A stretch of 64,000 bases of DNA, taken from the sequence record LC494302.1. One strand, written 5' to 3'. Below, piece by piece: positions 7,950-42,025 of the stretch. The DNA is from Escherichia phage SP27. The notes beneath the pieces are model-generated. The model saw only the letters and a list, made by a program, of their open reading frames with translations. It did no database searches and had not been told where the DNA came from. A program made the position numbers and the translations under genes. The stretch's first letter is position 1. Every line of letters starts with the position of its first letter.

Positions 7950-8040
7950 TTGACTTATTTTGTCAGTACTGGCATAATGTATTCATTGGCAGATAAGCCG
8001 TAGCCCATAGGGTGCGGGAGTGTATCTATAGAAAAAGTAG
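7950..8040 (+). ncRNA. short promoter-driven noncoding unit (unit d)
   Basis: TTGACT 7950-7955 /17/ CATAAT 7973-7978; ...AGATAAGCCGTAGCCCATAGGGTGCGGGAGTGTATCTATAG; no ORF. Confidence 0.45.
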
Positions 8041-8122
8041 TTTAGTATAGTTACAATTGTGCACCCGGTGGGTTAGCTGTTGTCATGGGGTATATTATGC
8101 CAGTACTTGATAATGCTGTCAA
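8041..8122 (-). ncRNA. short promoter-driven noncoding unit (unit e), convergent with unit d
   Basis: Minus strand TTGACA (rc 8117-8122) /17/ CATAAT (rc 8094-8099); reads ...GCTAACCCACCGGGTGCACAATTGTAACTATAC. Confidence 0.45.
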
Positions 8123-8197: not shown

Positions 8198-8203
8198 GTT
8201 TTA

Positions 8204-8287
8204 CATCAGGACGGGGAACGAAATAAGTAACTTCCCGTTAAGTAGCCCAGGAGTAAGGCACACGAAAAACTCCCCTGATAAAATAGT
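8204..8287 (+). ncRNA. conserved leader or short RNA of about 80 nt between tandem promoters
   Basis: No ATG; hairpin ACGGGGAA...TTCCCGT; near-identical copy at 19180-19260 with a compensated stem. Confidence 0.45.
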
Positions 8288-8315
8288 TTGACAATTGTTT
8301 TTAAAAGCGTATAAT
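8288..8315 (+). promoter_or_regulatory. sigma70-like promoter
   Basis: TTGACA 8288-8293 /16/ TATAAT 8310-8315; ATG 8348. Confidence 0.7.
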
Positions 8316-10421: not shown

Positions 10422-10455
10422 CGCGGGGAGATAATAACTCCCCGTTACTTTTTCA
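10422..10455. terminator. intrinsic terminator (possibly bidirectional)
   Basis: CGGGGAG 10424-10430 / CTCCCCG 10438-10444 then TTACTTTTT; A/T-rich on both sides. Confidence 0.7.
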
Positions 10456-10464
10456 GTACTGAAT

Positions 10465-10553
10465 CATTTAATAGACGGATCTCGGCACCCGGTGGGTTAG
10501 TGACTGTTTCGTCTTGATGTAGTAATTATGCCAGTACTGGATGCACTTGTCAA
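10465..10553 (-). ncRNA. short promoter-driven noncoding unit (unit f)
   Basis: Minus strand TTGACA (rc 10548-10553) /17/ CATAAT (rc 10525-10530); reads CATCAAGACGAAACAGTCACTAACCCACCGGGTGCCGAG. Confidence 0.45.
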
Positions 10554-14843: not shown

Positions 14844-14981
14844 ATGAATCCTAACGGTATAATTTACAGTACTCCTAAAACGAAAGCAGACAAGGTAAAC
14901 GCTAAAAAAGCGAAAGTAAAGGAGTACATCAAGCAAGGCATGACGCGAAAGGCGGCGATTCTAAAAGCTAAAAATAAATGA
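14844..14981 (+). CDS. small basic protein
   Basis: 45 aa; ATG abuts previous stop (TAAATG); MNPNGIIYSTPKTKADKVNAKKAKVKEYIKQGMTRKAAILKAKNK. Confidence 0.45.
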   Translation: MNPNGIIYSTPKTKADKVNAKKAKVKEYIKQGMTRKAAILKAKNK

Positions 14982-14983
14982 AA

Positions 14984-15075
14984 AAAGTGGTTGACTTCGG
15001 TCAGCCATTTTGCTATTATATATTCATTGAGAGATAGCTCACTAGCCCACAGGGTGCAGGAGTGTATCTATTGTA
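14984..15075 (+). ncRNA. short promoter-driven noncoding unit (unit g) with promoter embedded in a terminator-like hairpin
   Basis: Hairpin TGGTTGAC-TTCG-GTCAGCCA holds TTGACT 14991-14996 /17/ TATTAT 15014-15019; ...GAGATAGCTCACTAGCCCACAGGGTGCAGGAGTGTATCTATTG. Confidence 0.45.
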
Positions 15076-15112
15076 TAATGTTTGAGTACTTAAAACTATT
15101 TTTAAAAAAGTA

Positions 15113-15172
15113 CTTGCAAACTATCTCAATAAGCGTATAATGTTTTACATCGCAAGGGGAAACGGTTTCCCC
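15113..15172 (+). promoter_or_regulatory. early promoter + 5' hairpin cassette
   Basis: TTGCAA 15113-15118 /16/ TATAAT 15135-15140; hairpin AGGGGAA-ACGGT-TTCCCCT 15154-15172. Confidence 0.75.
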
Positions 15173-17961: not shown

Positions 17962-18285
17962 ATGTACATTCATACTACTATCACAAAGGAAGTCCGTTGC
18001 CAGTTCGAAAGTATTCCGGGCGTATGTTTCATCACTGGTACGTTTTCCCCTGGTGATCGTGATAATCCAGTACTGTTACAATTACGCCATCCATCATGGG
18101 ATAAAGCATTTGATCTACCGTTGAATGAATTCGCAACTACTGCTGAAAAGTACATTAAAAATATTCGCGAGAATGATCGACTATTCATTAATGCTTTTAG
18201 TGATTCCGCGTTAAGCGAGATCCACGGCGTATTGGTTGCAATCATGGAATCAATGCAGAAAACTAAATTCAAACAAGGTGAATAA
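17962..18285 (+). CDS. hypothetical protein
   Basis: 107 aa; SD AGAGGA; MYIHTTITKEVRCQ. Confidence 0.8.
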   Translation: MYIHTTITKEVRCQFESIPGVCFITGTFSPGDRDNPVLLQLRHPSWDKAFDLPLNEFATTAEKYIKNIRENDRLFINAFSDSALSEIHGVLVAIMESMQKTKFKQGE

Positions 18286-18291
18286 AAACTA

Positions 18292-18351
18292 TTGACAATA
18301 GATTATAGTACTGTATAATAAGTTACATGAAGGGGAGAAATGATTCTCCCC
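18292..18351 (+). promoter_or_regulatory. early promoter + 5' hairpin cassette
   Basis: TTGACA 18292-18297 /16/ TATAAT 18314-18319; hairpin GGGGAGAA-ATGA-TTCTCCCC 18332-18351. Confidence 0.75.
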
Positions 18352-18368
18352 ACTGAGAGGAAAGAAAA

Positions 18369-18581
18369 ATGCAAGGTCAACTAATCGTTCGTAAATGGTC
18401 TGATACTAACGAAAAACCGTGGGATGTACAATACATCGGACCGGATGGGGTATCACGTTATCAGCCTGGCGTAACGCATAGTACTGAGCAATATGCCGCC
18501 GCTCACCGCGAACGCCTGTTAGAATCCATGAAACAGGGATTCTGTGAAAAATTCATTCAAGATCATTGGCTGAAAGATTAA
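18369..18581 (+). CDS. hypothetical protein
   Basis: 70 aa; SD GAGAGGAAA; MQGQLIVRKWSDT. Confidence 0.8.
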   Translation: MQGQLIVRKWSDTNEKPWDVQYIGPDGVSRYQPGVTHSTEQYAAAHRERLLESMKQGFCEKFIQDHWLKD

Positions 18582-18598
18582 TAGAAGGAGTACAGCTT

Positions 18599-18691
18599 AT
18601 GCAAATGAATCCGATGATTATTGTTTTAGCTGTACTTATGATCATTCATGCAATTGTAGAAGTATTAACGCAATCAGGAGTAATAAAATGA
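18599..18691 (+). CDS. 30-aa hydrophobic peptide (single TM helix)
   Basis: SD GAAGGAG 18584-18590; hand-translated MQMNPMIIVLAVLMIIHAIVEVLTQSGVIK. Confidence 0.5.
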   Translation: MQMNPMIIVLAVLMIIHAIVEVLTQSGVIK

Positions 18692-18861
18692 TTCAAGTAG
18701 AATTATCAGTACTGAAAGATCTGTTTTATCGGTTAGGTACTACTGGAGAGTATCCTAAAAGTGATACCGCAAAACTTTTTGTATCACTCGATTTATGGCA
18801 ACGCGAACAATTAGTAATGTCCTGGCGTAAAGGTAAAGCAGATAGCGAGGTGAAAGCATGA
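18688..18861 (+). CDS. small hypothetical protein
   Basis: 57 aa, below track cutoff; ATGA overlap; MIQVELSVLKDLFYRLGTTGEYPKSD... Confidence 0.55.
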   Translation: MIQVELSVLKDLFYRLGTTGEYPKSDTAKLFVSLDLWQREQLVMSWRKGKADSEVKA

Positions 18862-19007
18862 AAGAATTCTTATTCGAAGTAGTGTTTCAAGGTGTCGGTA
18901 GTAATCAATTGATTCGCTCAAGTGGTTACAATGTTAACCAGGCATGGAATAACATTAAACAAATGTACCCGAACGCTATCACATATCGCAACCCAAAAGA
19001 AGTTTAA
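18858..19007 (+). CDS. small hypothetical protein
   Basis: 49 aa, below track cutoff; ATGA overlap; MKEFLFEVVFQGVGSNQLIRSSGYNVNQAWNNIKQMYPNAITYRNPKEV. Confidence 0.55.
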   Translation: MKEFLFEVVFQGVGSNQLIRSSGYNVNQAWNNIKQMYPNAITYRNPKEV

Positions 19008-19015
19008 AAATAATT

Positions 19016-19105
19016 GAAAAAGGGATTGACTCCGGTCAGTCCCTTTGCTATTATATACGCATAGAAACAAATCAGCCCACCGGGTGCATAAATGTATCTA
19101 TTGTT
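19016..19105 (+). ncRNA. short promoter-driven noncoding unit (unit i), promoter embedded in terminator-like hairpin
   Basis: GGGATTGAC-TCCG-GTCAGTCCC holds TTGACT 19026-19031 /17/ TATTAT 19049-19054; CATAGAAACAAATCAGCCCACCGGGTGCATAAATGTATCTATTG. Confidence 0.45.
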
Positions 19106-19145
19106 TGCTGGTGGCTAGTACTGAAAACTATTTTTAAAAAAGTAC

Positions 19146-19173
19146 TTGCATTGTACTTAGAATCAAGTATAAT
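19146..19173 (+). promoter_or_regulatory. early promoter (upstream of conserved leader)
   Basis: TTGCAT 19146-19151 /16/ TATAAT 19168-19173. Confidence 0.7.
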
Positions 19174-19179
19174 GTTTTA

Positions 19180-19260
19180 CATCAGGACGGGGAACGAAAC
19201 AAGTAACCCCGTTAAGTAGTCCAGGAGTAAGACATACGAAAAACTCCCCTGATAAAATAG
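19180..19260 (+). ncRNA. conserved leader or short RNA of about 80 nt between tandem promoters (copy 2)
   Basis: Near-identical to 8204-8287; stem ACGGGG...CCCCGT; no ATG. Confidence 0.45.
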
Positions 19261-19261
19261 T

Positions 19262-19289
19262 TTGACAATAGAAAGTAAACGAGTATAAT
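19262..19289 (+). promoter_or_regulatory. sigma70-like promoter
   Basis: TTGACA 19262-19267 /16/ TATAAT 19284-19289. Confidence 0.7.
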
Positions 19290-19322
19290 ACTTACATCAA
19301 CCACTGATAAGGAAACATAAAA

Positions 19323-19598
19323 ATGCGGATTCTACTGACAGCTAACGAAATCGAACAAGTACTGACTACTAACCTGGAAGACTGGAAACGTGAAGCAGAT
19401 ATCCAGGCGGTTCAATGGTTAAATGATAAGTTAACGCCGGATGACTTAAGCAAGATTGTAGATCCTCAATTCTACGAAGATATCCACGACACCGCGTTAA
19501 GCGTCGAGGATGTACTAGATAAGCACTTTATTGATACTGATTTGCAGGTTTACGGTCGTAAAAACTTTATCACTATTCACGACATTTACAATAATTAA
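19323..19598 (+). CDS. hypothetical protein
   Basis: 91 aa; SD AAGGAA; acidic; MRILLTANEIEQVL. Confidence 0.8.
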   Translation: MRILLTANEIEQVLTTNLEDWKREADIQAVQWLNDKLTPDDLSKIVDPQFYEDIHDTALSVEDVLDKHFIDTDLQVYGRKNFITIHDIYNN

Positions 19599-19601
19599 GT
19601 A

Positions 19602-19663
19602 TTGACAAAGTATCTTAGTACTGTATAATAGTTTACATCGAGTGAGGGGAAACGGTTCCCCTC
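19602..19663 (+). promoter_or_regulatory. early promoter + 5' hairpin cassette
   Basis: TTGACA 19602-19607 /16/ TATAAT 19624-19629; hairpin GAGGGGAA-ACGG-TTCCCCTC 19644-19663. Confidence 0.75.
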
Positions 19664-19686
19664 CTAACAAAGAGAGAGAAATAAAA

Positions 19687-19869
19687 ATGGCTAAGTGCAC
19701 TATCTGCAAGAAAGAAATAGTATTAGTTCCAAGTGCCCGTGAACGTGCCGCTCGGTTCGGTGGCAAAGCGTCAGACTATACAAAAATGTTTACTGCCCAT
19801 ACAGCTTGCCAGGTAGCAAAACGTTCACAAGAAAGCGTAGAATTAATGCGTAAACTTTCCAAAAAATAA
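19687..19869 (+). CDS. small protein with C-x2-C ... H-x2-C pattern
   Basis: 60 aa from MAKCTICKKEIVLVPS ... FTAHTACQVAK; SD AGAGAGAGA; track start 19642 lies in hairpin. Confidence 0.75.
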   Translation: MAKCTICKKEIVLVPSARERAARFGGKASDYTKMFTAHTACQVAKRSQESVELMRKLSKK

Positions 19870-19872
19870 GTA

Positions 19873-19933
19873 TTGACAAAGTATCTTAGTACTGTATAAT
19901 AGTTTACATCAAGTGAGGGGAATGGTTCCCCTC
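19873..19933 (+). promoter_or_regulatory. early promoter + 5' hairpin cassette (near-duplicate of 19602-19663)
   Basis: TTGACA 19873-19878 /16/ TATAAT 19895-19900; hairpin GAGGGGAA-TGG-TTCCCCTC 19915-19933. Confidence 0.75.
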
Positions 19934-19956
19934 CTAACTAAAAGAGAGAAATAAAA

Positions 19957-20280
19957 ATGGCTATGATCCTTGCCCAGAAAGTAGAATTGAAAATTGTAAC
20001 CTCCTTTGACATTAACGTTAATCGGTGGACTGATTCACACGGCAATACTTACCACTCTTGCTACGTGTCTGCGTTAATTGGCGACCGCTGGGAAGACCTG
20101 GGACACGAAACCTTTACATACGGTTACGGTACACAAGGCGAATACACGGGCTTGGAGATCATTAAAGAAACCGTTATAGGTTTCAACCCGAAAGAAAAAG
20201 TTATTCACCGCATCGAGGAAGAGATCAACAAAGAAATAACAGTTCGCTACCACGATGTAAAACGTAAGAAAGACATGTAA
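19957..20280 (+). CDS. hypothetical protein (paralog of 13074..13418)
   Basis: 107 aa; GNTYHS ... YGYG ... DVKRKKDM. Confidence 0.85.
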   Translation: MAMILAQKVELKIVTSFDINVNRWTDSHGNTYHSCYVSALIGDRWEDLGHETFTYGYGTQGEYTGLEIIKETVIGFNPKEKVIHRIEEEINKEITVRYHDVKRKKDM

Positions 20281-20302
20281 TAGAATCCATTTAAAGTACT
20301 AT

Positions 20303-20331
20303 TTGACATTGCCCAGATAGTACTTTATAAT
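20303..20331 (+). promoter_or_regulatory. promoter with AGTACT inverted repeat
   Basis: AGTACTA-TTGACA 20303-20308 /17/ TATAAT 20326-20331, GATAGTACT in spacer. Confidence 0.7.
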
Positions 20332-20375
20332 AGACTCTAACTTGTAGTACTAACTCAACTAATAGGATGTATACC

Positions 20376-20771
20376 ATGATTACTAAATTCTACGCTACCC
20401 GTGAAGCTGCCCGTATTGTTGCACGCGAGGAAGGCGAAACATTTAAAGACATGGGCAAAGATGCACCGAAAGGTCAACGCTGGGCCGTACAGTTCAAAGA
20501 GATCTCTGATATTGTGAATTCACCGGAGCCAGTACTAACAGCAGCAGAACTAAAACGAGCGGATTTACTGGCGTCAATACTTGATGCACAAGATGAGTTT
20601 ATCGCTGATTCTGATATCAAAGTACAGACAAACCACACCGCTTGGACTCACGCGGATCACCTGGCAAACCTTAAGCGTCCAAGTGAACTGATTCGCAACC
20701 AGAAAGAGATCCGACACGACCGTAAGGGTAATCGTGTAACAGTATACAGTAAACGCCGCCAGGTTATCTAA
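20376..20771 (+). CDS. hypothetical protein (paralog of 7335..7601)
   Basis: 131 aa from MITKFYATREAARIVAREEGETFKDMG; SD AGGA 7 nt upstream; alternative ATG at 20367. Confidence 0.8.
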   Translation: MITKFYATREAARIVAREEGETFKDMGKDAPKGQRWAVQFKEISDIVNSPEPVLTAAELKRADLLASILDAQDEFIADSDIKVQTNHTAWTHADHLANLKRPSELIRNQKEIRHDRKGNRVTVYSKRRQVI

Positions 20772-20793
20772 TAACTTGCAGTACTAACAACAC

Positions 20794-20818
20794 GGCGGGA
20801 TCAGTTCCCGCCTTTTTT
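20794..20818 (+). terminator. intrinsic terminator
   Basis: GGCGGGA 20794-20800 / TCCCGCC 20806-20812 then TTTTTT. Confidence 0.85.
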
Positions 20819-20832
20819 ATAGGACAAACAAA

Positions 20833-21087
20833 ATGATTAAGGTTCAACTATATAAAGATAACATCTTACGGGTACACTATAAAGCACCTCAGAGAATCAT
20901 CACAAAGGCCGTACAGCTTGCAAATGAGTTTATTAATGGTAACCTATTACCTAGGAAGTTAAGCAACGGGAAACTGCGTGTAATCGACGTGGACACTAAC
21001 AACAGGATAGTAATCGAGAACACAGGAAAGATAAACCTTTATGAGCATCAACAATACAATAAGAAAATAAAACTAATATCACGTTGA
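20833..21087 (+). CDS. hypothetical protein
   Basis: 84 aa; SD AGGA; MIKVQLYKDNILRV. Confidence 0.75.
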   Translation: MIKVQLYKDNILRVHYKAPQRIITKAVQLANEFINGNLLPRKLSNGKLRVIDVDTNNRIVIENTGKINLYEHQQYNKKIKLISR

Positions 21088-21112
21088 CAGTACTCAAATG
21101 TTTTAGTACTAT
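21084..21112 (+). promoter_or_regulatory. sigma70-like promoter
   Basis: TTGACA 21084-21089 /17/ TACTAT 21107-21112. Confidence 0.6.
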
Positions 21113-21140
21113 ATGTACATACCAACACGGGGGAAACAAA

Positions 21141-21383
21141 ATGATTACTTTAGAAAAACGTATCAAAGAAACTACATCGCTGGTGGAACTGTTAACAGTA
21201 CTCAAATGTAAAACAACACCATTCAGCACGCCGGACTTTATTAATATGGTTGATGTTAATGGTCGCTATCGTATCACGGTCGAACAAGGAGCGGCGAAAG
21301 TATTCAGTACTAAAAACACGAAGGAAGTGATCCACGCCGTTAATGTTAAAAAAGTAGTTGCCATTGATAGTAAAGTACTGTAA
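21141..21383 (+). CDS. hypothetical protein
   Basis: 80 aa from MITLEKRIKETTS; SD GGGGGAA; track start 21084 coincides with the -35 element. Confidence 0.75.
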   Translation: MITLEKRIKETTSLVELLTVLKCKTTPFSTPDFINMVDVNGRYRITVEQGAAKVFSTKNTKEVIHAVNVKKVVAIDSKVL

Positions 21384-21414
21384 GATAGTTACATTAACTC
21401 AAGGAGAACATGCA

Positions 21415-21999
21415 ATGCGTAATTATACTAAATTCATCCGTACACTGTCAGAAATGGAAACCAACAAAGAGATCCTTTCAGCTTGTCGGTTAGCTGGCCT
21501 GGAGATCATCGGTGCTGGTTCTTCCCGTATAGTTTTCGCTTTAAATGATCGGTTAGTGATTAAGGTCGCGAATTGTGATGCGGGTGTAGAACAAAATGAA
21601 ACTGAATGTAAGGTATGGAATTTTTTAGACTATGACCGCCCTCAGTTGAAACAGTACTTTGCAAAGGTGCATATGCATTTATGCGATCCTGATAATATGT
21701 TTATCGTTATGGATCGGTTGAGTACTGCAAGTAAAGGCAGTGTGAAGCACGTAAACGCGTGCAATGAATTAAAGTACAATATTAAACGTAATGCAATCGA
21801 CCGCCAGCACCGCTTTGCTGATGCACTACAACACGTTGATGATACATTATCAACACTAACGATAAGAGATATCAGAAAACAGAATATCGGCCAGGATCGT
21901 AATGGACTTATTAAAGTACTTGATTACGGTTTAACCAGCAATATCTGGAATCAGTACTATAAAAAGCGTGATGTGGCAGCAAGTAAGGTAACACGATAA
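21415..21999 (+). CDS. protein-kinase-like protein (putative Ser/Thr kinase fold)
   Basis: 194 aa from MRNYTKF; SD AAGGAG; IGAGSSRIVF (Gly loop), VIKVA (Lys), DIRKQNIG (D-x-K-x-x-N catalytic loop), VLDYG (DFG-like). Confidence 0.65.
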   Translation: MRNYTKFIRTLSEMETNKEILSACRLAGLEIIGAGSSRIVFALNDRLVIKVANCDAGVEQNETECKVWNFLDYDRPQLKQYFAKVHMHLCDPDNMFIVMDRLSTASKGSVKHVNACNELKYNIKRNAIDRQHRFADALQHVDDTLSTLTIRDIRKQNIGQDRNGLIKVLDYGLTSNIWNQYYKKRDVAASKVTR

Positions 22000-22007
22000 A
22001 AAAGATT

Positions 22008-22100
22008 AAAAAAGGGATTGACTCCGGTCAGTCCCTTTGCTATTATATATCCATTGAGAGATAACTCACTGACCCATAGGGTGCGGAAGTGTATCTATTA
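22008..22100 (+). ncRNA. short promoter-driven noncoding unit (unit j), promoter embedded in terminator-like hairpin
   Basis: GGGATTGAC-TCCG-GTCAGTCCC; TTGACT 22018-22023 /17/ TATTAT 22041-22046; ...GAGATAACTCACTGACCCATAGGGTGCGGAAGTGTATCTATTA. Confidence 0.45.
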
Positions 22101-22140
22101 TATAAGTATTCAGTACTGAAAACTATTTTTAAAAAAGTAC

Positions 22141-22200
22141 TTGCATTGTACTTAGAATCAAGTATAATGTTTTATATCGAGAGGGGAAATGGTTCTCCCT
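22141..22200 (+). promoter_or_regulatory. early promoter + degenerate 5' hairpin
   Basis: TTGCAT 22141-22146 /16/ TATAAT 22163-22168; AGGGGAAA...TTCTCCCT 22182-22200 with one mismatch. Confidence 0.65.
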
Positions 22201-22219
22201 GGCAATAAGGAATAAAATC

Positions 22220-22441
22220 ATGACTACAATGACTTGCATTTACGCTTCCAATCTACTGAATGATGCGGCCTTTAATGTTGATTCAGAATATCAATGTTAT
22301 CGGGATGAAAATAAAAAAGTTTTTGTAGTTGATAATAATGGTTTCCATATTGAATTACAATCCGGCTTCACTGGTGTTGATGGTAAATCAGTATGGGGCG
22401 TACAGGATGATAAAGGCACATATCATTTTAAACGTAATTAA
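22220..22441 (+). CDS. hypothetical protein
   Basis: 73 aa; SD AAGGAA; MTTMTCIYASNLL. Confidence 0.8.
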   Translation: MTTMTCIYASNLLNDAAFNVDSEYQCYRDENKKVFVVDNNGFHIELQSGFTGVDGKSVWGVQDDKGTYHFKRN

Positions 22442-22444
22442 GTA

Positions 22445-22503
22445 TTGACAAAGTATACCAGTACTGTATAATAGTTTACATCAAGGGGAGAATAGTTCTC
22501 CCC
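22445..22503 (+). promoter_or_regulatory. early promoter + 5' hairpin cassette
   Basis: TTGACA 22445-22450 /16/ TATAAT 22467-22472; hairpin GGGGAGAA-TAG-TTCTCCCC 22485-22503. Confidence 0.75.
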
Positions 22504-22525
22504 GATACTAAAAGGAAACAAAATT

Positions 22526-22798
22526 ATGTCCAGCTACTCCGCTACTATGATCATTAAAGATATGAACGGTAATCCTACTTCTGCTGGTGGATCATTTGGA
22601 AACATTAATTTAGATGGTCGGTTATCCATGCAATCAGCAATCGATGCAGCGAAAGAAGTTTTTAAGAATGAATGTACTGTTAGTAAGCTGGATTATATGG
22701 GATTTGCTATCGAAAAAACTAATCGTTTTGTGGACTACAAAAAACCACTGATGATTGATACTAACCTGAAAGCAAACGAAGTGGAGTACTTATTATGA
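22526..22798 (+). CDS. hypothetical protein
   Basis: 90 aa; SD AAAGGAA; MSSYSATMIIKDMNG. Confidence 0.8.
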   Translation: MSSYSATMIIKDMNGNPTSAGGSFGNINLDGRLSMQSAIDAAKEVFKNECTVSKLDYMGFAIEKTNRFVDYKKPLMIDTNLKANEVEYLL

Positions 22799-22986
22799 CA
22801 GTTGAAGAAGTTAAAAAAGTACTGGCAGTACTACGCTATCATAATCATTGTAAGGTGAAGAATGATCCTGATTATCTTGATTCATCCCTGGAAGAGGATA
22901 CACTACAAGCAATAAGCCATATGCAAACATTAGCAAAGCGTATGACCGAAAAGAATAGACCGGACTATATCGGAAATAAAATTTAA
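22795..22986 (+). CDS. hypothetical protein
   Basis: 63 aa; ATGA overlap; MTVEEVKKVLAVL. Confidence 0.75.
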   Translation: MTVEEVKKVLAVLRYHNHCKVKNDPDYLDSSLEEDTLQAISHMQTLAKRMTEKNRPDYIGNKI

Positions 22987-22993
22987 AAAGTAC

Positions 22994-23054
22994 TTGCATT
23001 GTAGTTAGATTAACGTATAATGTTTTACATAGAGCGGGGGAATAGTTCTCCCGC
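22994..23054 (+). promoter_or_regulatory. early promoter + 5' hairpin cassette
   Basis: TTGCAT 22994-22999 /16/ TATAAT 23016-23021; hairpin GCGGGGGAA-TAG-TTCTCCCGC 23034-23054 (one G-U). Confidence 0.75.
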
Positions 23055-23647: not shown

Positions 23648-23676
23648 TTGACATAGCTTGATAGTACTGATGTAAT
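23648..23676 (+). promoter_or_regulatory. type-B promoter flanked by AGTACT inverted repeat
   Basis: CAGTACTA-TTGACA 23648-23653 /17/ TGTAAT 23671-23676. Confidence 0.6.
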
Positions 23677-23704
23677 AACTTTACTAACTACAAGGGGAAA
23701 CATA

Positions 23705-24051: not shown

Positions 24052-24252
24052 ATGTCTATCGCTATCGCCCTGGTTGAAGTACTGAAAGAAGCTAAAGCCA
24101 ACCAGATCGACGTAAAGATCCAGGAACTACAAAACGGCGTAATCGGCTGTACTTGTACCGCTGGTGGAGCGGCAGACTATCGAGAACACGAATCACTCGA
24201 ATCACTGGTTCGGTATCTTACCATGATCGTTGATGATTGGAGAATCATCTAA
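24052..24252 (+). CDS. hypothetical protein
   Basis: 66 aa; SD TGGAG; MSIAIALVEVLKEAK. Confidence 0.8.
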   Translation: MSIAIALVEVLKEAKANQIDVKIQELQNGVIGCTCTAGGAADYREHESLESLVRYLTMIVDDWRII

Positions 24253-24264
24253 CAAAAAAGAATA

Positions 24265-24352
24265 AAAAAGGGATTGACTCCGGTCAGTCCCTTTGCTATT
24301 ATATACGCATAGACAAAAACTAGCCCACAGGGTGCATAGGTGTATCTAAAAT
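24265..24352 (+). ncRNA. short promoter-driven noncoding unit (unit k), promoter embedded in terminator-like hairpin
   Basis: GGGATTGAC-TCCG-GTCAGTCCC; TTGACT 24275-24280 /16/ TATTAT 24297-24302; CATAGACAAAAACTAGCCCACAGGGTGCATAGGTGTATCTAAA. Confidence 0.45.
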
Positions 24353-24414
24353 ATATGGTTAATAACGGTGAGTAACTATCTGCTGGTGGAGTGAAAACTA
24401 TTAATAAAAAAGTA

Positions 24415-24443
24415 TTGACAAAGTATATCAGTACTGCGATAAT
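24415..24443 (+). promoter_or_regulatory. sigma70-like promoter
   Basis: TTGACA 24415-24420 /17/ GATAAT 24438-24443; leader differs from cassette type. Confidence 0.65.
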
Positions 24444-25847: not shown

Positions 25848-26045
25848 ATGCGTATTTTAACTAAAGAACAGCACCACGAAAGACTTATCAATAACATGGC
25901 TATGATAATGTATAAGTCCCATGACCGTGGTATTGCCTATAAGCGTGAATTAATTATGGCACTATTCATTGGAACTAACTTTCAGGAAAGGTATGTCAAC
26001 GATTGGATTTGGTATTTAATTGAAGATATAACGAGTAAACTATGA
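25848..26045 (+). CDS. Fam-B protein
   Basis: 65 aa; FIGTNFQERYVNDWIWYLIEDITSKL. Confidence 0.85.
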   Translation: MRILTKEQHHERLINNMAMIMYKSHDRGIAYKRELIMALFIGTNFQERYVNDWIWYLIEDITSKL

Positions 26046-26242
26046 AAATGCGTATTTTAAATAAAGAAGAATATCAATCACTGTTACGTAAAAACTTCAC
26101 AAAGATTTATAATACAGACACACACGTAGAACGAATGGAGTTATACCTTTTGATTACTTTGGGAACTAACTATCAGGAAAGATGGGTGATTCAATATATG
26201 GATACATTGAAAAATAAAATATTGTCCACGAGGAAACAATGA
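26042..26242 (+). CDS. Fam-B protein
   Basis: 66 aa; ATGA overlap; LGTNYQERWVIQYMDTLKNKI. Confidence 0.85.
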   Translation: MKMRILNKEEYQSLLRKNFTKIYNTDTHVERMELYLLITLGTNYQERWVIQYMDTLKNKILSTRKQ

Positions 26243-26448
26243 AAACTATAACACGAACCCAATCATACGGTCTTATCTTGAAATACATGGACTTAATGGT
26301 GGATATCAGCAAAGACCTTCCTAAAACTGAAATTGAAGTTGCAAGAGCAGAGATCCGCATGTTGGCTGTACTGAACACAAACCATCAGGAAGATTATGTT
26401 GAAGAATGGATTCGATTTTTAATTCAAGATATAAAGAGTAAATTATGA
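26239..26448 (+). CDS. Fam-B protein
   Basis: 69 aa; ATGA overlap; LNTNHQEDYVEEWIRFLIQDIKSKL. Confidence 0.85.
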   Translation: MKTITRTQSYGLILKYMDLMVDISKDLPKTEIEVARAEIRMLAVLNTNHQEDYVEEWIRFLIQDIKSKL

Positions 26449-26657
26449 TTTTTTTAACACCAGAAGAATATAAGAAACGTTTCAATTCCGCACAGGGTGA
26501 AATCTTACTTATATACCTTTCAAATGCAGACCTTAACTTATCAAGGGTATTAGAAAAAGATTTACTTATGGGTGCATTCCTTGATACAGACTTTCAGGTG
26601 TATTATGTAGGGGAATACTTAATTGCACTCCAGAATTACATTAAGAGTAAACTATGA
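26445..26657 (+). CDS. Fam-B protein
   Basis: 70 aa; ATGA overlap; LDTDFQVYYVGEYLIALQNYIKSKL. Confidence 0.85.
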   Translation: MIFLTPEEYKKRFNSAQGEILLIYLSNADLNLSRVLEKDLLMGAFLDTDFQVYYVGEYLIALQNYIKSKL

Positions 26658-26866
26658 ATAGCATTAACTCAAATCTATATACCGAACGCGTCGCGGCCAG
26701 ACAACTTGAAATTCTCATAGTATATGAAGAGACTGATGATTTAAACTTAGCATTAGTATTGGAAAATGATATACTATTGGGTGCATTCCTCGGCACAGAC
26801 TATCAGGAGCACTTCTTGAATGAGTATATAATTGCACTCCAGAAATACATTAAGAGCAAACTATGA
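26654..26866 (+). CDS. Fam-B protein
   Basis: 70 aa; ATGA overlap; LGTDYQEHFLNEYIIALQKYIKSKL. Confidence 0.85.
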   Translation: MNSINSNLYTERVAARQLEILIVYEETDDLNLALVLENDILLGAFLGTDYQEHFLNEYIIALQKYIKSKL

Positions 26867-27081
26867 AACATTTAAGTAATTACGAGAAGAATAAAATTAT
26901 CGTTGCTGCAATAAACAAATATTTTACACTTCCTCACACAGAAGGTTTATGTGTAAGGGAACACAGGATAAACACCACCGATATACGCATGATGGCTGTA
27001 CTGGGGACGAACTTTCAGGAAGAGTATGTTGTTGCACACATAGTTGCCCTCACTGATCTAATAAGGGACAAATGTAAATGA
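26863..27081 (+). CDS. Fam-B protein
   Basis: 72 aa; ATGA overlap; LGTNFQEEYVVAHIVALTDLIRDKCK. Confidence 0.85.
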   Translation: MKHLSNYEKNKIIVAAINKYFTLPHTEGLCVREHRINTTDIRMMAVLGTNFQEEYVVAHIVALTDLIRDKCK

Positions 27082-27335
27082 AACACTTAACTGATGATGA
27101 ATTTGAAACTATAATTCGTAAACTAACCCCCATCACAAGGATAGTCTACGGTGACCCCAGCCTTACATGGAACCAAATGCGAGCTAAAGTTAATGAGCTA
27201 TGGTTGCTGTACTTTATGGGGACTCAATATCAAGATAAGTTTTGCACAGAATATATCGAACAATTAACGAATGTTATACAGGATAAACTAGATGATTATT
27301 TGCTCACAAAACATGAAGACTTTATCAGGAGTTGA
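27078..27335 (+). CDS. Fam-B protein (C-terminally extended)
   Basis: 85 aa; MGTQYQDKFCTEYIEQLTNVIQDKL plus a 14-aa tail beyond the usual stop position. Confidence 0.8.
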   Translation: MKHLTDDEFETIIRKLTPITRIVYGDPSLTWNQMRAKVNELWLLYFMGTQYQDKFCTEYIEQLTNVIQDKLDDYLLTKHEDFIRS

Positions 27336-27564
27336 GTATCAAACTGCCCTATTCTCTTTAATCCATGCCCTTAGAAAAAACAATGCCTTATATGGTGCAC
27401 CTGAAGTGGATGTTATCAACGGTGAACTTTATCTTATGAAATTCATTGGAACAAACTATCAAGATCTGTTCATTCAACGATACTTATCAGCATTAAGAAA
27501 CCAAATCCAATATAAAACCATCAAGGCCAAAAAAGAATGGAATAAACAATGCGACACAGACTAA
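27313..27564 (+). CDS. Fam-B protein
   Basis: Start MKTLSGVEY fits the family N-terminus (alternative ATG 27292); IGTNYQDLFIQRYLSALRNQI. Confidence 0.75.
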   Translation: MKTLSGVEYQTALFSLIHALRKNNALYGAPEVDVINGELYLMKFIGTNYQDLFIQRYLSALRNQIQYKTIKAKKEWNKQCDTD

Positions 27565-27797
27565 ATCACAAAATGTATTGTAAACTATTGCAGACATTGG
27601 CACAGAAACACTATGACACGGTATCTGGAATATTACCCTATGATATCATGCGTTTACTTCACTGTGAGGCCGAGATGCTTGTACTGATGACAGGCACTGA
27701 TAAAAACGCAATTGCCAAATCAATAGATATGTTCATCGAAGCACACTGCCAACACATGAGAACCGAAATCTGGAGGAAAGAGAATGATAATCCTTAA
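27549..27797 (+). CDS. Fam-B protein (divergent)
   Basis: 82 aa; MTGTDKNAIAKSIDMFIEAH. Confidence 0.75.
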   Translation: MRHRLNHKMYCKLLQTLAQKHYDTVSGILPYDIMRLLHCEAEMLVLMTGTDKNAIAKSIDMFIEAHCQHMRTEIWRKENDNP

Positions 27798-27999
27798 TGA
27801 GTATCAGTATCATTGGAGGTTACAAACTATCAAATCAAAAGTGTATAGTATTGTGTTAAACAAATCTATTGCACAAGAGGACAAATGTGTTATAATAGCT
27901 GAAATGAAGTTGGGTGTATTCGTAGGGACAAACTATCAAAACATCTACACTGACGTATTGTTAAGTGCCTTACGTAACAAGGTGGTATCCAAAATATGA
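27784..27999 (+). CDS. Fam-B protein
   Basis: 71 aa; VGTNYQNIYTDVLLSALRNKVVSKI. Confidence 0.85.
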   Translation: MIILNEYQYHWRLQTIKSKVYSIVLNKSIAQEDKCVIIAEMKLGVFVGTNYQNIYTDVLLSALRNKVVSKI

Positions 28000-28214
28000 G
28001 AAATTTACAAGGCTTTGAATACATCAGACTCCTGAAAACATGTGGAAGCAGAAGGAGAATGATATCAAGCGATAAGAGCATCCAAGCTAACCTTAAGCAC
28101 GCACTAGTAACTGAACTCTATGTAGGTGCACTCTTAGGCACAAACTATCAACAAATGTATGTAGATCTATGGATTGACGCTCTACAGAAAGAGGTTAAAA
28201 GTAAATGCAAATGA
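27996..28214 (+). CDS. Fam-B protein
   Basis: 72 aa; ATGA overlap; LGTNYQQMYVDLWIDALQKEVKSKCK. Confidence 0.85.
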   Translation: MRNLQGFEYIRLLKTCGSRRRMISSDKSIQANLKHALVTELYVGALLGTNYQQMYVDLWIDALQKEVKSKCK

Positions 28215-28423
28215 TTAATTTAAGTAAAGACGAATTTTATGTTATACTGGCGAAAACTTATCCAGCACGTAAGGCCGTTTATGATAGTCACATTATTGAA
28301 CCCTCAAAGAAGTTGATTTTAGTAAATGAGATAAAGATGCTTTCAGTCTTAGGAACAAACTATCAAGAGAATGCTGTACTGATGTTAATTGATGCCCTCC
28401 AGAGAGAGGTTAAACGTAAATGA
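28205..28423 (+). CDS. Fam-B protein
   Basis: 72 aa; MQMINLSKDEF; LGTNYQENAVLMLIDALQREVKRK. Confidence 0.85.
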   Translation: MQMINLSKDEFYVILAKTYPARKAVYDSHIIEPSKKLILVNEIKMLSVLGTNYQENAVLMLIDALQREVKRK

Positions 28424-28650
28424 AAATGATTAATTTAACTTACCATGAATATCAAAAACGTTTAAATGCATCCAGAGATATAAGGATTCAAATATTCAAT
28501 AACAAAAAATTGAAACCTGATACCAGAAGAATCAAAATCATAGAAGCCGTGTTGTGTAACTTCCTAGGGACTAACTATCAGGAAGGTAAGGTAGAAAACT
28601 ATCTTATAGAACTCATGAATAGTATTGAAAATAAATGTAAGGGTAATTAA
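28420..28650 (+). CDS. Fam-B protein
   Basis: 76 aa; ATGA overlap; LGTNYQEGKVENYLIELMNSIENKCKGN. Confidence 0.85.
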   Translation: MKMINLTYHEYQKRLNASRDIRIQIFNNKKLKPDTRRIKIIEAVLCNFLGTNYQEGKVENYLIELMNSIENKCKGN

Positions 28651-28654
28651 CATG
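28621..28654 (+). repeat. 34-nt direct repeat, copy 1 (3' end of 28420..28650 plus next start)
   Basis: AGTATTGAAAATAAATGTAAGGGTAATTAACATG, identical to 28890-28923. Confidence 0.9.
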
Positions 28655-28891
28655 AAAATGATTAAATTATCTCAAGCAAAATATAAAGAACGCCTGGTAA
28701 AAATTGCACCTGGACTTAATGAAATCCATCACGGAGAAGTCATTAAACACGGAAATAAGATGATTATGAAACTTGAGTTAAAGGTGGGTGCATTCATAGG
28801 AACAAACTATCAGGAGTATTATGTAGATGAATACATAATCGCACTTAAGAGATACATTGGAAGAAAACTATATCTACAAACTAAAGAATAG
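28652..28891 (+). CDS. Fam-B protein
   Basis: ATG 28652 (track start 28625 is TTG); MKMIKLSQAKY; IGTNYQEYYVDEYIIALKRYI. Confidence 0.8.
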   Translation: MKMIKLSQAKYKERLVKIAPGLNEIHHGEVIKHGNKMIMKLELKVGAFIGTNYQEYYVDEYIIALKRYIGRKLYLQTKE

Positions 28892-28923
28892 TATTGAAAA
28901 TAAATGTAAGGGTAATTAACATG
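28890..28923 (+). repeat. 34-nt direct repeat, copy 2 (noncoding remnant of a gene 3' end plus next start)
   Basis: Identical to 28621-28654 but here it lies downstream of a different stop codon. Confidence 0.9.
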
Positions 28924-29184
28924 CAAATGATCAATTTAAGTAAAGATGAATATACCGAGCGTATGACAAAAATTACGCACAAACGTAATACAATCTATCA
29001 CAACCCAGAAATTCAACACAGTAAGAAAATGATTATGATGCGTGAGTTAAAGATGGGTGTATTCTTAGGAACAAACTATCAAGATACAGAAGTAAATCGC
29101 TTAATCGCGGAGTTACTACTGGAAATCAGAGGTAAGCTGTACTTTCATCAAATGACCCAACCACTGAGGTGTACTGATCGATGA
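28921..29184 (+). CDS. Fam-B protein
   Basis: ATG 28921 (track start 28894 lies in the repeated remnant); MQMINLSKDEY; LGTNYQDTEVNRLIAELLLEI. Confidence 0.8.
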   Translation: MQMINLSKDEYTERMTKITHKRNTIYHNPEIQHSKKMIMMRELKMGVFLGTNYQDTEVNRLIAELLLEIRGKLYFHQMTQPLRCTDR

Positions 29185-29432
29185 ATGCGATGAATATTGT
29201 GAATAACATCAGATTAGCAGAAAGATTTGATAGAATTGGGGAAGCACTGAGAAGATACGATAAAGAATATGGTCATTTGAGCTTTTCTATAGAAAAGAGA
29301 TATGAACTTGAAGCAGAGTTTAAAATGCAGAGTCTCTTAGGCACACAGTATCAAAACCAATATATTCAAACTTGGATTGATTGTTTAATCCAGACAATTT
29401 ACGTAAGAAACATTAAATGCAAAATGAAATGA
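29181..29432 (+). CDS. Fam-B protein
   Basis: 83 aa; ATGA overlap; LGTQYQNQYIQTWIDCLIQTI. Confidence 0.85.
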   Translation: MNAMNIVNNIRLAERFDRIGEALRRYDKEYGHLSFSIEKRYELEAEFKMQSLLGTQYQNQYIQTWIDCLIQTIYVRNIKCKMK

Positions 29433-29671
29433 TATACTTAACACATGATGAGTTAACAGAAAGACTAGATAAATCCAAAAGACTTACAAATAAACTTCCT
29501 CACAACACAAATCAAACCCCAGCAGAAAGGAGTGCAGAAGTTTTATTCCAAAGATTACCATACCTTCTTGGAACTGATAGGCAAGAGTATCACATTGAAC
29601 GTATAATTAAATATCTCAAAATTACTATTAAGGAAAAAGTAAATGCAAATGAAATACTTAACAGACGATGA
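29417..29671 (+). CDS. Fam-B protein
   Basis: 84 aa (alternative ATG 29429); LGTDRQEYHIERIIKYLKITIKEK. Confidence 0.8.
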   Translation: MQNEMIYLTHDELTERLDKSKRLTNKLPHNTNQTPAERSAEVLFQRLPYLLGTDRQEYHIERIIKYLKITIKEKVNANEILNRR

Positions 29672-29894
29672 GTTAAAAGAACGACTAATTAAATCCAGAA
29701 AACTTACAAATCAACTTCCAAACGACACAAACAAGTCACATGCCGAAAGGAGTGCAGAAGTTTTATACATTCAACTCATGTACTTTCTTGGCACTGACAG
29801 ACAAGAGTATTACATTGAAAGTATGCTTCGATATCTTAAATTCTCTATAAAGGAAAAGATACATGCTCAAGAATTTAAAAATCCTAACAGTTAA
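29643..29894 (+). CDS. Fam-B protein (close paralog of 29417..29671)
   Basis: 83 aa; LTDDELKERL; LGTDRQEYYIESMLRYLKFSIKEK. Confidence 0.8.
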   Translation: MQMKYLTDDELKERLIKSRKLTNQLPNDTNKSHAERSAEVLYIQLMYFLGTDRQEYYIESMLRYLKFSIKEKIHAQEFKNPNS

Positions 29895-30105
29895 TGAATA
29901 TCATACGATTGTAATGAAAACTAATAGTGCAATTTCTAAAAAATCAAACCCCAAGTACATACTGGAACACACATTTGAAGAACGTCAATTAGCTTTAGTT
30001 GAAGCAAAACTTCTTGCACTCCTAGGGACTAACTATCAAGAAGAATACATCAGAAAACTAATATACCTTTTAACTAAACATATAAGAAAAAGAAAAAATG
30101 CATGA
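29863..30105 (+). CDS. Fam-B protein
   Basis: 80 aa; LGTNYQEEYIRKLIYLLTKHI. Confidence 0.85.
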   Translation: MLKNLKILTVNEYHTIVMKTNSAISKKSNPKYILEHTFEERQLALVEAKLLALLGTNYQEEYIRKLIYLLTKHIRKRKNA

Positions 30106-30332
30106 AACACTTGACAGATGATGAACATGGGCTTATAGTAATGGATGTAATCAACATCGAATACAAAAAGTTGATACGCTACCGTTGTTATGAAGATAAG
30201 CAACTCGTTCTAGCAGAACAGAAGTTGTTTCGACTCTTAAACACAAACTTCCAAGCACAATACGAAGAATCGTATATGTACCTTTTGGCGAGGAAAGCAA
30301 AAAGAGATTATGAAAATTTTAAGCAAAGGTGA
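30102..30332 (+). CDS. Fam-B protein
   Basis: 76 aa; ATGA overlap; LNTNFQAQYEESYMYLLARKA. Confidence 0.8.
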   Translation: MKHLTDDEHGLIVMDVINIEYKKLIRYRCYEDKQLVLAEQKLFRLLNTNFQAQYEESYMYLLARKAKRDYENFKQR

Positions 30333-30525
30333 TTCAGTAATATTACTTATAGAGAGTTCAAGTAAATTCTTAAACATAACACTGTCTGATATAGATGAAG
30401 ATGACAAAGAAGTACTGAGAGCAGATTTAAGAGTACTGTTACATATCGGAACAAACCTACAAGAAGAATATGTAGAATGCTACATCAATGAACTTAAAGA
30501 ATCAGTACTGAGAAAATGCAAATGA
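30310..30525 (+). CDS. Fam-B protein
   Basis: 71 aa; IGTNLQEEYVECYINELKESVLRKCK. Confidence 0.85.
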   Translation: MKILSKGDSVILLIESSSKFLNITLSDIDEDDKEVLRADLRVLLHIGTNLQEEYVECYINELKESVLRKCK

Positions 30526-30743
30526 AAATCATTACCGATGCAGAATACCTAACAATCATAAATGGACTGTTTTTGAAGCTCTTCGTCATTAACACATCAG
30601 ATATACCAGATATGGATAAAATTATTAAGAGAAATGAAGTCTATGTTCTAGCTACCCTTGGAACGAACTATCAAGAACACGACATTAAAGATTATATTAA
30701 TACACTTAAACGAGCGATTGAACTAAAATGCCAAAACCACTAG
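30516..30743 (+). CDS. Fam-B protein
   Basis: 75 aa; LGTNYQEHDIKDYINTLKRAIELKC. Confidence 0.85.
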   Translation: MQMKIITDAEYLTIINGLFLKLFVINTSDIPDMDKIIKRNEVYVLATLGTNYQEHDIKDYINTLKRAIELKCQNH

Positions 30744-30943
30744 GAACAGCAGAATACATTGAACTAATGGCATTACACTTCTCATCCTTTCAGAAACTTA
30801 GGCGAGAATCAAAGAATGATTTAGAATATACCATCAGAGGTTCCGATTTAAGAATGCTTCTCACCCTAGACACAGATTCCCAAGAGCGATTTGTCAATGA
30901 GCATATTAGAGCACTTTTAATGGAAATTCAAAGTAAACTATGA
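30728..30943 (+). CDS. Fam-B protein
   Basis: 71 aa; LDTDSQERFVNEHIRALLMEIQSKL. Confidence 0.85.
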   Translation: MPKPLGTAEYIELMALHFSSFQKLRRESKNDLEYTIRGSDLRMLLTLDTDSQERFVNEHIRALLMEIQSKL

Positions 30944-31155
30944 AGATAATATCAAACCAAGAGTACTTGGCACTATTCAGGAAGAATAATCACAAATATA
31001 TGGCACTTGATTCAAGAACTGATATAAGTGAACTTGAAAAAAATCTTTTGCGTTCAGAGATGATAGTACTGACACTCTTAGGAACACAGCATCAAGAGAG
31101 AACTGTTAATTCACACATAGGTATTCTTATACAGATTGTACTGGAAAAGATATGA
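30940..31155 (+). CDS. Fam-B protein
   Basis: 71 aa; ATGA overlap; LGTQHQERTVNSHIGILIQIV. Confidence 0.85.
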   Translation: MKIISNQEYLALFRKNNHKYMALDSRTDISELEKNLLRSEMIVLTLLGTQHQERTVNSHIGILIQIVLEKI

Positions 31156-31373: not shown

Positions 31374-31374
31374 T

Positions 31375-42024: not shown

Positions 42025-42025
42025 A

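Follow-up and report, generated by a model that had tools for sequence, protein, structure and literature searches.

Within the 64,000-nucleotide stretch of Escherichia phage SP27 analysed here (LC494302.1, hereafter the window), four copies of a composite module of about 160 bp have been identified. Each is composed of a terminator-like hairpin with a promoter embedded in it (P1), a short conserved element (the core) and a second, tandem promoter (P2). The region from 18000 to 23000 is 97.8% identical over its full length to Escherichia phage vB_EcoM_E9.1, and shares 90-97% identity with 121Q, PBECO4, UE-S1 and other Asteriusvirus-type (RaK2-like) jumbo phages of ~350 kb. Phages of the RaK2/121Q type are only distant relatives of T4, as described for phage CBB (PMC5259590).

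The part of the window between ~5 and 25 kb is densely filled with + strand open reading frames (ORFs) of 45-213 aa, and each of the eight ORFs beside the four modules falls into a PHROG family without known function. The same region contains ~30 near-identical sigma70-type cassette promoters (families D1-D3) of uniform layout: an A/T-rich upstream tract, TTGCAW or TTGACA, a 16-nt spacer, TATAAT, a 5' stem-loop and a Shine-Dalgarno sequence (SD). Judged from its sequence, it is a typical early region for the host polymerase. RpoD-like promoters with UP-like elements have been reported for the related phage CBB (PMC5259590). No tRNA or tmRNA was detected by ARAGORN in the window. For comparison, loci of the relatives were retrieved by pattern scans of a viral collection; these came from RaK2 (345,809 bp), 121Q, GAP32 (358,663 bp) and other contigs of ~350-380 kb, and are numbered with the prefix L below.

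The 41-mer AAAAAGGGATTGACTCCGGTCAGTCCCTTTGCTATTATATA is present on the + strand as exact copies at 19017, 22009 and 24265 (0 expected in shuffles). The recurrence given in a preliminary description of this DNA was thereby confirmed, with two of its starts (19016 and 22008) displaced by one nucleotide; the variant copy which it placed at 14984 does exist, but starts at 14982, with TTGACT at 14991. All four copies begin 1-13 nt past the stop codon of a + strand ORF (ends 14981, 19007, 21999 and 24252), in agreement with the proposed location at operon boundaries. The elements of the copy first noted at 19016 (hereafter the 19016 copy) and of the other three are as follows, all on the + strand.

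19017-19046: terminator-like hairpin of the 19016 copy, 10 nt past the stop of ORF 18858-19007.
Parts of this hairpin: A-tract 19017-19021; 5' arm GGGATTGAC 19022-19030; loop TCCG 19031-19034; 3' arm GTCAGTCCC 19035-19043.
From 19044: T-tract of the 19016 copy, T-rich on through the -10 box.
19026-19054: promoter P1 of the 19016 copy, with the -35 box TTGACT (19026-19031) within the hairpin, its final T being the first loop base.
P1 extended -10 box, TGc TATTAT: TG 19046-19047, hexamer 19049-19054, after a 17-nt spacer; predicted start A19061.
19061-19104: core RNA, short form, predicted from P1, with an A-rich 5' leader; covariance-model hit 19054-19107, 42.7 bits.
Core hairpin of the 19016 copy: G19075-CCC/GGG-U19085 with an ACC loop, inside the 12-mer 19076-19087.
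19093-19101: conserved 3' motif of the core, TGTATCTAT.
19117-19146: UP element of P2 (consensus register 19122-19143), with AGTACT palindromes on each side (19117-19122 and 19141-19146).
19146-19173: promoter P2 (cassette promoter), with -35 TTGCAT 19146-19151, a 16-nt spacer and -10 TATAAT 19168-19173; start ~19179-19181.
14982-15141: variant copy, 1 nt past the stop of ORF 14844-14981; hairpin 14982-15011; P1 -35 14991-14996, -10 15014-15019, start ~A15026.
Distal parts of the variant copy: core 12-mer 15046-15057 (long form with a 5' hairpin GAG/CTC; covariance model 66.3 bits); UP word 15091-15113; P2 15114-15141.
22009-22168: third copy, 10 nt past the stop of ORF 21358-21999; hairpin 22009-22038; P1 -35 22018-22023, -10 22041-22046, start ~A22053.
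Distal parts of the third copy: core 12-mer 22073-22084 (covariance model 65.7 bits); UP word 22118-22140; P2 -35 22141-22146, -10 22163-22168.
24265-24443: fourth copy, 13 nt past the stop of ORF 24052-24252; hairpin 24265-24294; P1 -35 24274-24279, -10 24297-24302.
Distal parts of the fourth copy: core 12-mer 24324-24335 (covariance model 51 bits); ~45-bp insertion; diverged UP word 24393-24415; P2 TTGACA-17-GATAAT 24415-24443.

The architecture outlined in the preliminary description is largely retained. The hairpin consists of a 9-bp stem (GGGATTGAC/GTCAGTCCC, with one U.G pair) and a UCCG tetraloop, flanked by A5 and T3, and the TTGACT in its ascending arm is separated by 17 nt from TATTAT, with TG at -15/-14, in four of four copies. 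The proposed order of hairpin, core, word and cassette promoter holds by alignment, with a deviation in the 24265 copy: the word GAAAACTATTTTTAAAAAAGTAC, found after the core with 0-1 mismatches in three copies, has three mismatches there and lies beyond the insertion of ~45 bp. The near-identity claimed for the stretch from the word through TATAAT was also found, 19117-19194 and 22112-22189 being 94% identical (family D2).

Folding of the hairpin as RNA gave -21.3 kcal/mol for the 41-mer and -16.7 kcal/mol for the variant (z -5.4 each), with a UCCG or UUCG loop and a stem lengthened by A/U pairs. The variant differs from the other copies by two compensatory pairs (G-C to U-A and A-U to G-C) and one replacement of G-C by G.U. 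In a single signal scan all four copies scored as both promoter-like (TTGACT-17-TATTAT, 10/12, TG) and terminator-like. The window and the relatives' loci together contain 56 distinct promoters with TTGAC in the ascending arm of a stable hairpin, 34 of which are of the A-tract/G-rich/tetraloop/T-tract type (hereafter fusions; folding energies -13 to -21 kcal/mol). Stem covariation was assessed in 26 fusions aligned without gaps. Paired cells amounted to 94.9%, compensatory changes, present in the outer stem, were found in four pairs (17 cells), and the covariation reached 0.291, compared with 0.202 after shuffling (0/500) and at most 0.155 with the partner slid. The A-tract is conserved in this alignment, and the stem bases opposite TTGAC vary only to letters that pair in RNA (U.G or U-A, G-C or G.U). 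Among 32 distinct hairpins, in which UUCG is the commonest loop (13/32), there are 314 Watson-Crick, 61 G.U and 3 A.C pairs. The excess of G.U over A.C points to selection on the sense-strand RNA, and not on a DNA palindrome or on a structure of the other strand.

The position of these hairpins relative to genes leads in the same direction. In 29 of 34 cases an ORF with 40 or more codons ends no more than 40 nt before the fusion (median 5 nt), and a hairpin covers the -35 box in 26 of the 33 co-directional core units, compared with none of the 22 opposite-strand units (Fisher p = 1.2e-9). A hairpin serving the promoter would be indifferent to the direction of the neighbouring gene, whereas a terminator would not; placement at gene ends together with this orientation bias thus argues for an action on the upstream transcript as terminator. 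An intrinsic terminator is defined by a GC-rich hairpin that passes directly into a U-rich tract and lies behind a gene of the same strand, and this arrangement is present; the tail UUUGCUAUUAU contains 7 U in 11 nt, with just three in a row. The same hairpins are labelled 'terminator' in the GenBank record of UE-S1. On this comparative evidence, the hairpin is a predicted terminator-type element for the upstream transcript, selected as sense RNA.

The DNA of the hairpin carries a second set of signals. P1, TTGACT-17-TGcTATTAT, matches the consensus boxes in 10 of 12 positions and has an extended -10. TTGAC never changes in the 26 aligned relatives, although the rest of the stem varies, and its distance to a TAnnnT box is 17-18 nt in all aligned copies, often with TG. 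The core begins 20-29 nt past a -10 box, with a conserved CAT start region, irrespective of promoter type or strand; in other core units an ordinary TTGACA-17-TGgCATAAT promoter takes the place of P1. In the relatives the fusion is the sole promoter-like signal before ordinary genes, the SD and ATG of which lie 25-45 nt further on. The core follows 17 of the 34 distinct fusions, and the other 17, devoid of a core, drive ordinary genes, which indicates that the fusion is a general boundary element and the core a separate add-on. With TTGAC invariant 17 nt from TGnTATTAT, the hairpin DNA is also a predicted promoter. The idea of one element acting as terminator-like RNA hairpin and sigma70-type promoter is, in sum, well supported by comparative evidence.

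The core, CCCAYMGGGTGC-N5-TGTATCT (TGTAWCT), is found after each of the four copies and has eight matches in the window, against 0.01 expected. A covariance model recognized 11 units in the window, all within 5.9-24.4 kb. When 18 loci were included with the window, the total rose to 70 units, of which 62 are distinct; the family was seen in RaK2-like phages only. The predicted transcript opens at CAU, frequently followed by a hairpin of 3-5 bp, the loop of which is rich in purines (GAGAAA, AGAUAA, AGAACAA). The stems of this 5' hairpin differ by copy (GGC/GCC, GCA/UGC, GACA/UGUC, GACG/CGUC, GAG/CUC, CCA/UGG and others), short forms lack it, and its covariation is 0.344 against 0.139 in shuffled alignments (0/500) and at most 0.058 when slid. 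The next elements are CUAR and a hairpin RCCC-loop-GGGU with ACA, AUA, ACC, UAGA or UCAA as loop, the stem of which is nearly invariant, with pairing kept in two copies having U-A in place of C-G. In the 3' part, GC is invariant and precedes five purine-rich bases, after which comes UGUAUCUAU or its variant with CCGUCU. The stability of the whole core RNA is unremarkable (z -0.5 to -1.3).

Neither the complete early region nor two individual units gave a match near the gathering threshold when scanned against Rfam 15, the weak hits being at chance level and mostly terminator hairpins, and literature searches with the core 12-mer led to unrelated primer sequences only. In 185,579 bacterial and archaeal genomes the core pattern has nine single matches in unrelated taxa, against an estimated ~8.7 expected by chance; the core is thus not a host element or mimic detectable by pattern scan. 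Three other identities were considered and rejected: (i) a mini-ORF (SD-like GGGUG and AUG/GUG-UAU-CUA-stop), the start codon of which is missing in about one quarter of the copies and the stop position of which is not conserved; (ii) a sigma70-dependent pause element (YAGGGT), the key A of which is absent from the CCGGGT copies; (iii) a mimic of CRISPR repeats, suggested by a partial likeness to the I-F repeat, the TCACT part of which occurs in some copies only.

Core units are also found behind other promoters and on the opposite strand, and two of these units are listed below.

7950-8035 (+): core unit behind another hairpin-promoter, with a 12-bp stem GCCGGTATTGAC/GTCAGTACTGGC extending from -35 to -10 (-18.5 kcal/mol), then TGgCATAAT; convergent with the unit 8041-8122 (-).
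10423-10553 (-): opposite-strand core unit, with promoter TTGACA-17-TGgCATAAT 10553-10525, core RNA 10523-10465 and a bidirectional terminator 10445-10423.

The promoter of the latter unit (10553-10423, - strand) stands back-to-back with a + strand cassette promoter at 10587. By a simple criterion, a hairpin with T-tail is located 39-63 nt past the core in 10 of 22 opposite-strand units, compared with 2 of 34 co-directional ones, and the hairpin after an opposite-strand unit also ends the converging gene, as in the unit running from 10553 to 10423. The opposite-strand units look like stand-alone genes for predicted small RNAs of ~100 nt. Co-directional units run on into the UP element and P2. 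On these sequence features we regard the core as a probable, undescribed phage RNA family and not as a spacer. Our best guess is that it would act as RNA itself, as a protein-binding handle or an abundant early small RNA, rather than as a leader, because the unit also sits on the opposite strand as a self-contained promoter-core-terminator gene.

Some further observations concern the core units. Convergent pairs, 45-85 bp apart, are located in the window at 7978-8096 and 6041-6165 and in the relatives' loci L010 (12504-12626), L012 (6032-6166), L002 (1220-1361) and L003 (278-419); the two predicted RNAs of a pair would overlap in antisense. The gap of such pairs contains a Fur-box-like sequence in three relatives, and GAGAATGATAATCATTTAC in L012 agrees with the Fur-box consensus in 16 of 19 positions. 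In the UE-S1 record (L019 8879-9235, locus tag UES1_266; window 22089-22208) a coding sequence is annotated that starts at a GTG within the core motif (GTGTATCTATT...) and extends across the UP element and P2; it is probably spurious.

The last part of the module is P2 with its upstream tract. The word AGTACTGAAAAC..., that is AGTACTGAAAACT... or GAAAACTATTTTTAAAAAAGT (AGTACTGAAAACTATTTTTAAAAAAGTAC), agrees in register with 13 of the 14 specified positions of the full UP-element consensus, NNAAAWWTWTTTTNNNAAANNN, after Estrem et al. 1998, a consensus cited in PMC5259590 for phage CBB. The word was scored at the promoters at 15114 and 8170, where it is identical, with an offset of 1-2 from the -35 box; background scores have a mean of 6.7 and a 95th percentile of 9. 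It is predicted to be a near-consensus UP element of P2.

The hexamer AGTACT, which borders this element, is strongly over-represented in the window as a whole: 270 occurrences where base composition predicts 21 (12.6-fold); among the other palindromic hexamers the highest excess is 3-fold. For CAGTACTG the count is 65, compared with 0.6 expected. The palindrome is found in coding and non-coding DNA (for example at 19117-19122, 19141-19146, 5161, 5201, 10134 and 16678), with none in 25.6-30.4 kb or 32.8-40.5 kb. Within promoters it occupies the -35/-10 spacer, the position directly 5' of the -35 box or the border of the UP element. The GC-rich palindromic hexamers CCATGG, AGGCCT, AGCGCT, ACCGGT and CGATCG are absent from the window. 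A second class of hairpin-promoters has AGTACT-containing inverted repeats around the -35 box, such as CAGTACTATTGACATAGCTTGATAGTACTG and GCCGGTATTGAC...GTCAGTACTGGC; it numbers 18 distinct members, 17 of them directly past a stop codon, in the window (7950-7981 and 23648-23680) and in L004, L007, L009, L010 and L012. Downstream of P2, a conserved non-coding stretch of ~85 nt (19179-19262, 8201-8288) separates it from a third promoter, TTGACA-16-TATAAT, at 19262-19289 and 8288-8315. Two hairpins, ACGGGG.../CCCCGU and GGAGU.../ACUCC, are predicted in this stretch, the copies of which in the window, UE-S1 and 121Q are near-identical.

The composite motifs of T4-type phages known as PeSLs, which combine promoter and terminator and start at the upstream stop codon, recombine with each other and thereby shuffle ORFan cassettes, mini-circles being formed by recombination between them (Arbiol et al. 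2010, PMC2839356; Comeau et al. 2014, PMC4122927). When window 6-26 kb was compared with UE-S1, E9.1 and 121Q, 23 of 39 collinearity breakpoints were found in promoter cassettes, which make up 21% of the region (p = 2e-7). The unit at L007:5685-5742 of 121Q appears chimeric, joining the 5' half of the 24265 module to a 3' half like that of the 19016 module.

Taken together, these features make it quite probable that the ~160-bp module is a compact boundary cassette of an early, ORFan-rich region in which three functions are stacked. The A-tract, the G-rich 9-bp stem, the UUCG or UCCG loop and the U-rich tail would end or cap the upstream transcript. The DNA of the same hairpin would also contain the -35 box of a host sigma70 promoter, the -10 of which is extended. 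Since the T-rich terminator tail merges into the T-rich -10 box, ~35 bp would be common to terminator and promoter. P1 would transcribe a structured RNA of ~45 nt, comprising an optional covarying 5' hairpin, the RCCC-loop-GGGU hairpin and GC-N5-UGUAUCUAU, and transcription would then enter the stronger, UP-element promoter P2 and the next gene.

Several points weigh against this explanation. Literature searches found no transcriptomes, mapped transcript ends or small RNAs of RaK2-like coliphages. The U-tract is short (UUU, then GCUAUUAU), and termination may be partial. In the core, the second hairpin is nearly invariant, so that few compensatory events stand behind its pairing, and the pairing of the 5' (AUAGA) and 3' (UCUAU) parts is marginal (native -4.05, swapped -3.64 kcal/mol, p ~0.03). 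The co-directional units, having no terminator of their own, would give a leader and not a discrete small RNA, so that one function common to all units becomes less likely. Finally, the enrichment of breakpoints holds for promoter cassettes in general and not for the four hairpin modules, and intergenic DNA is expected to hold breakpoints.

The alternatives differ in the role given to the hairpin and to the core. If the hairpin were a terminator or 3'-end stabiliser only, with TTGACT...TATTAT as a by-product and the core as a trailer or spacer, the annotation of a terminator alone in the UE-S1 record and the terminator-like score of the hairpin by itself would be explained; however, this leaves unaccounted for the invariance of TTGAC amid a varying stem, the maintained 17-18-nt spacing to TAnnnT with TG at -15/-14, the constant 20-29 nt between any -10 box and the core, on either strand, and the role of the fusion as sole promoter-like site ahead of ordinary genes, and such a view is hardly probable. 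The inverted repeat could also be seen as a DNA operator over the -35 box, at which a phage repressor would shut off the early promoters. Operators are typically palindromic and overlap the -35, and the second promoter class has AGTACT inverted repeats across it, but the stems of the hairpin differ between copies (GGGA/TCCC, GTGG/CCAT, GGGG/CCCC, AAGG/CCTT), the hairpin is absent in 22 of 22 opposite-strand units, and the numbers of G.U and A.C pairs given above show complementarity only as sense RNA. On this asymmetry the operator reading of the hairpin was rejected, and we hold it to be extremely improbable.

Coupling of termination to re-initiation was the function put forward in the preliminary description: polymerase released at the hairpin would pass to P1, or the hairpin in read-through RNA would modulate the promoter, the output of one operon setting the input of the next. 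Single-molecule work has been reported in which E. coli RNA polymerase slides after termination and initiates again, and the release point of a terminating polymerase (~19046-19055) falls on the -10 box of P1. Nevertheless, the core unit is also served by hairpin-free promoters (7 co-directional and 22 opposite-strand units), ordinary genes are found behind the hairpin-promoter as well, and the strong P2, 90-120 bp downstream, would swamp any effect on the gene. Coupling appears unsupported and is not required, since a space-saving overlap as in PeSLs would explain the data, and we consider it unlikely. In an explanation by analogy with lambda nut and HK022 put, the core would be a cis leader that modifies the polymerase, so that transcripts from P1 would pass terminators and those from upstream would stop at the hairpin. 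The core does follow directly after a promoter in every case, consists of small hairpins and a conserved single-stranded motif, and lies right behind the terminator in co-directional modules. Against this, the opposite-strand copies run into a terminator with nothing but antisense DNA beyond it, an arrangement hard to reconcile with a role in gene expression; no similarity to the nut/put families in Rfam was found, an antiterminator protein was not identified, and the resemblance is by analogy only. A leader of this kind therefore seems unlikely as well.

The boundary cassette with stacked terminator, promoter and core hence remains the preferred explanation. A broader proposal for the core is possible but doubtful: it might be a multi-copy RNA family (~10 per genome), synthesized in large amounts from consensus host promoters within minutes of infection, the RCCC-loop-GGGU-GC hairpin of which would serve as a handle for a host or phage protein (decoy, sponge or polymerase-modifying leader), and which, with the terminator-embedded promoter, would form a 'stop-and-reload' insulator at each cassette boundary, in either orientation.

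Two other parts of the window deserve mention. Between 4550 and 6500, ~1.9 kb are poor in ORFs. Iteron-like repeats of 8/16-nt periodicity (GGACGGCTAAACGGCTAGATGG...) occupy 5567-5726 of this stretch, CAGTACTG recurs many times in it, and it includes three core units, 5891-5949 (-), 6041-6101 (+, weak) and 6107-6165 (-); the stretch may represent an origin-like or terminal region. Short paralogous genes form arrays at 25965-31535 and 41793-43831, one with units ~212-270 bp apart and the motif GG(A/C)ACAAACTATCAAGA (families D6, D7, D9) and another with units of ~440-480 bp (D4, D5).

The module shares single traits with several known systems. With lambda nut and HK022 put it has in common a small hairpin-bearing RNA just downstream of early promoters, a positional analogy only; it differs in the absence of sequence or covariance-model similarity and in core copies that lie on the non-coding strand and end at terminators, and no partner protein is known for the core. 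P2 resembles UP-element promoters of the rrnB P1 type through the 13/14 match upstream of its -35 box, the difference being the AGTACT palindromes that bracket the phage element. With intrinsic terminators, including bidirectional ones, the hairpin shares the A-tract, the GC-rich stem, the UUCG-type tetraloop and a U-rich tail a few nt past the stop codon. In contrast to them, the phage U-tract (UUUGCUAUUAU) is interrupted, because it doubles as promoter spacer and -10 box.

The closest counterpart is the PeSL, which consists of an AT-rich tract, a near-consensus sigma70 promoter and a G...C stem-loop, and is divided into five subclasses by the position of the stem-loop, one of them overlapping the -35 box (PMC2839356, PMC4122927). 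In lacZ fusions the PeSL promoter gave ~13,000 Miller units, and the terminator was comparable to rrnB T1 (PMC2839356, PMC4122927). At the sequence level the SP27 module presents the same characters: a start at the stop codon, an AT tract, sigma70 boxes, a stem-loop at the -35 and an ORFan-rich hyperplastic region; the T4-type myovirus host of PeSLs is replaced by an Asteriusvirus/RaK2-like jumbo phage. Literature searches found no paper describing PeSL-like cassettes in RaK2-like phages. The main design is already known, and the new part is the conserved, predicted small RNA family from half of the cassettes. Through this comparison the PeSL design, described in T4-type phages, is carried over to jumbo phages of the RaK2/121Q type, with genomes of 350 kb. 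PeSLs are self-contained expression signals as well as recombination linkers, through which ORFan cassettes can be swapped without disturbing their neighbours, and cassettes of this type help to explain the build-up and reshuffling of the large early regions in these jumbo phages. For the clade, annotation rules follow: terminator and promoter in one 40-bp element, a UP element and an unannotated small RNA. Very compact, strong and insulated expression parts for E. coli are a possible use.

Both the PeSLs and the SP27 module sit after a stop codon and unite an AT-rich tract, a near-consensus sigma70 promoter and a G...C-rich terminator stem-loop, and both reside in hyperplastic regions of small ORFans and are associated with indel breakpoints. 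They differ in lineage, RaK2/121Q-type instead of Tevenvirinae. Furthermore, half of the RaK2-like cassettes add a structured RNA between the promoters, and a second, UP-element promoter stands in tandem. By these comparisons, the module is a predicted PeSL-type element in another phage lineage, supplemented with a conserved small RNA and a tandem UP-element promoter.

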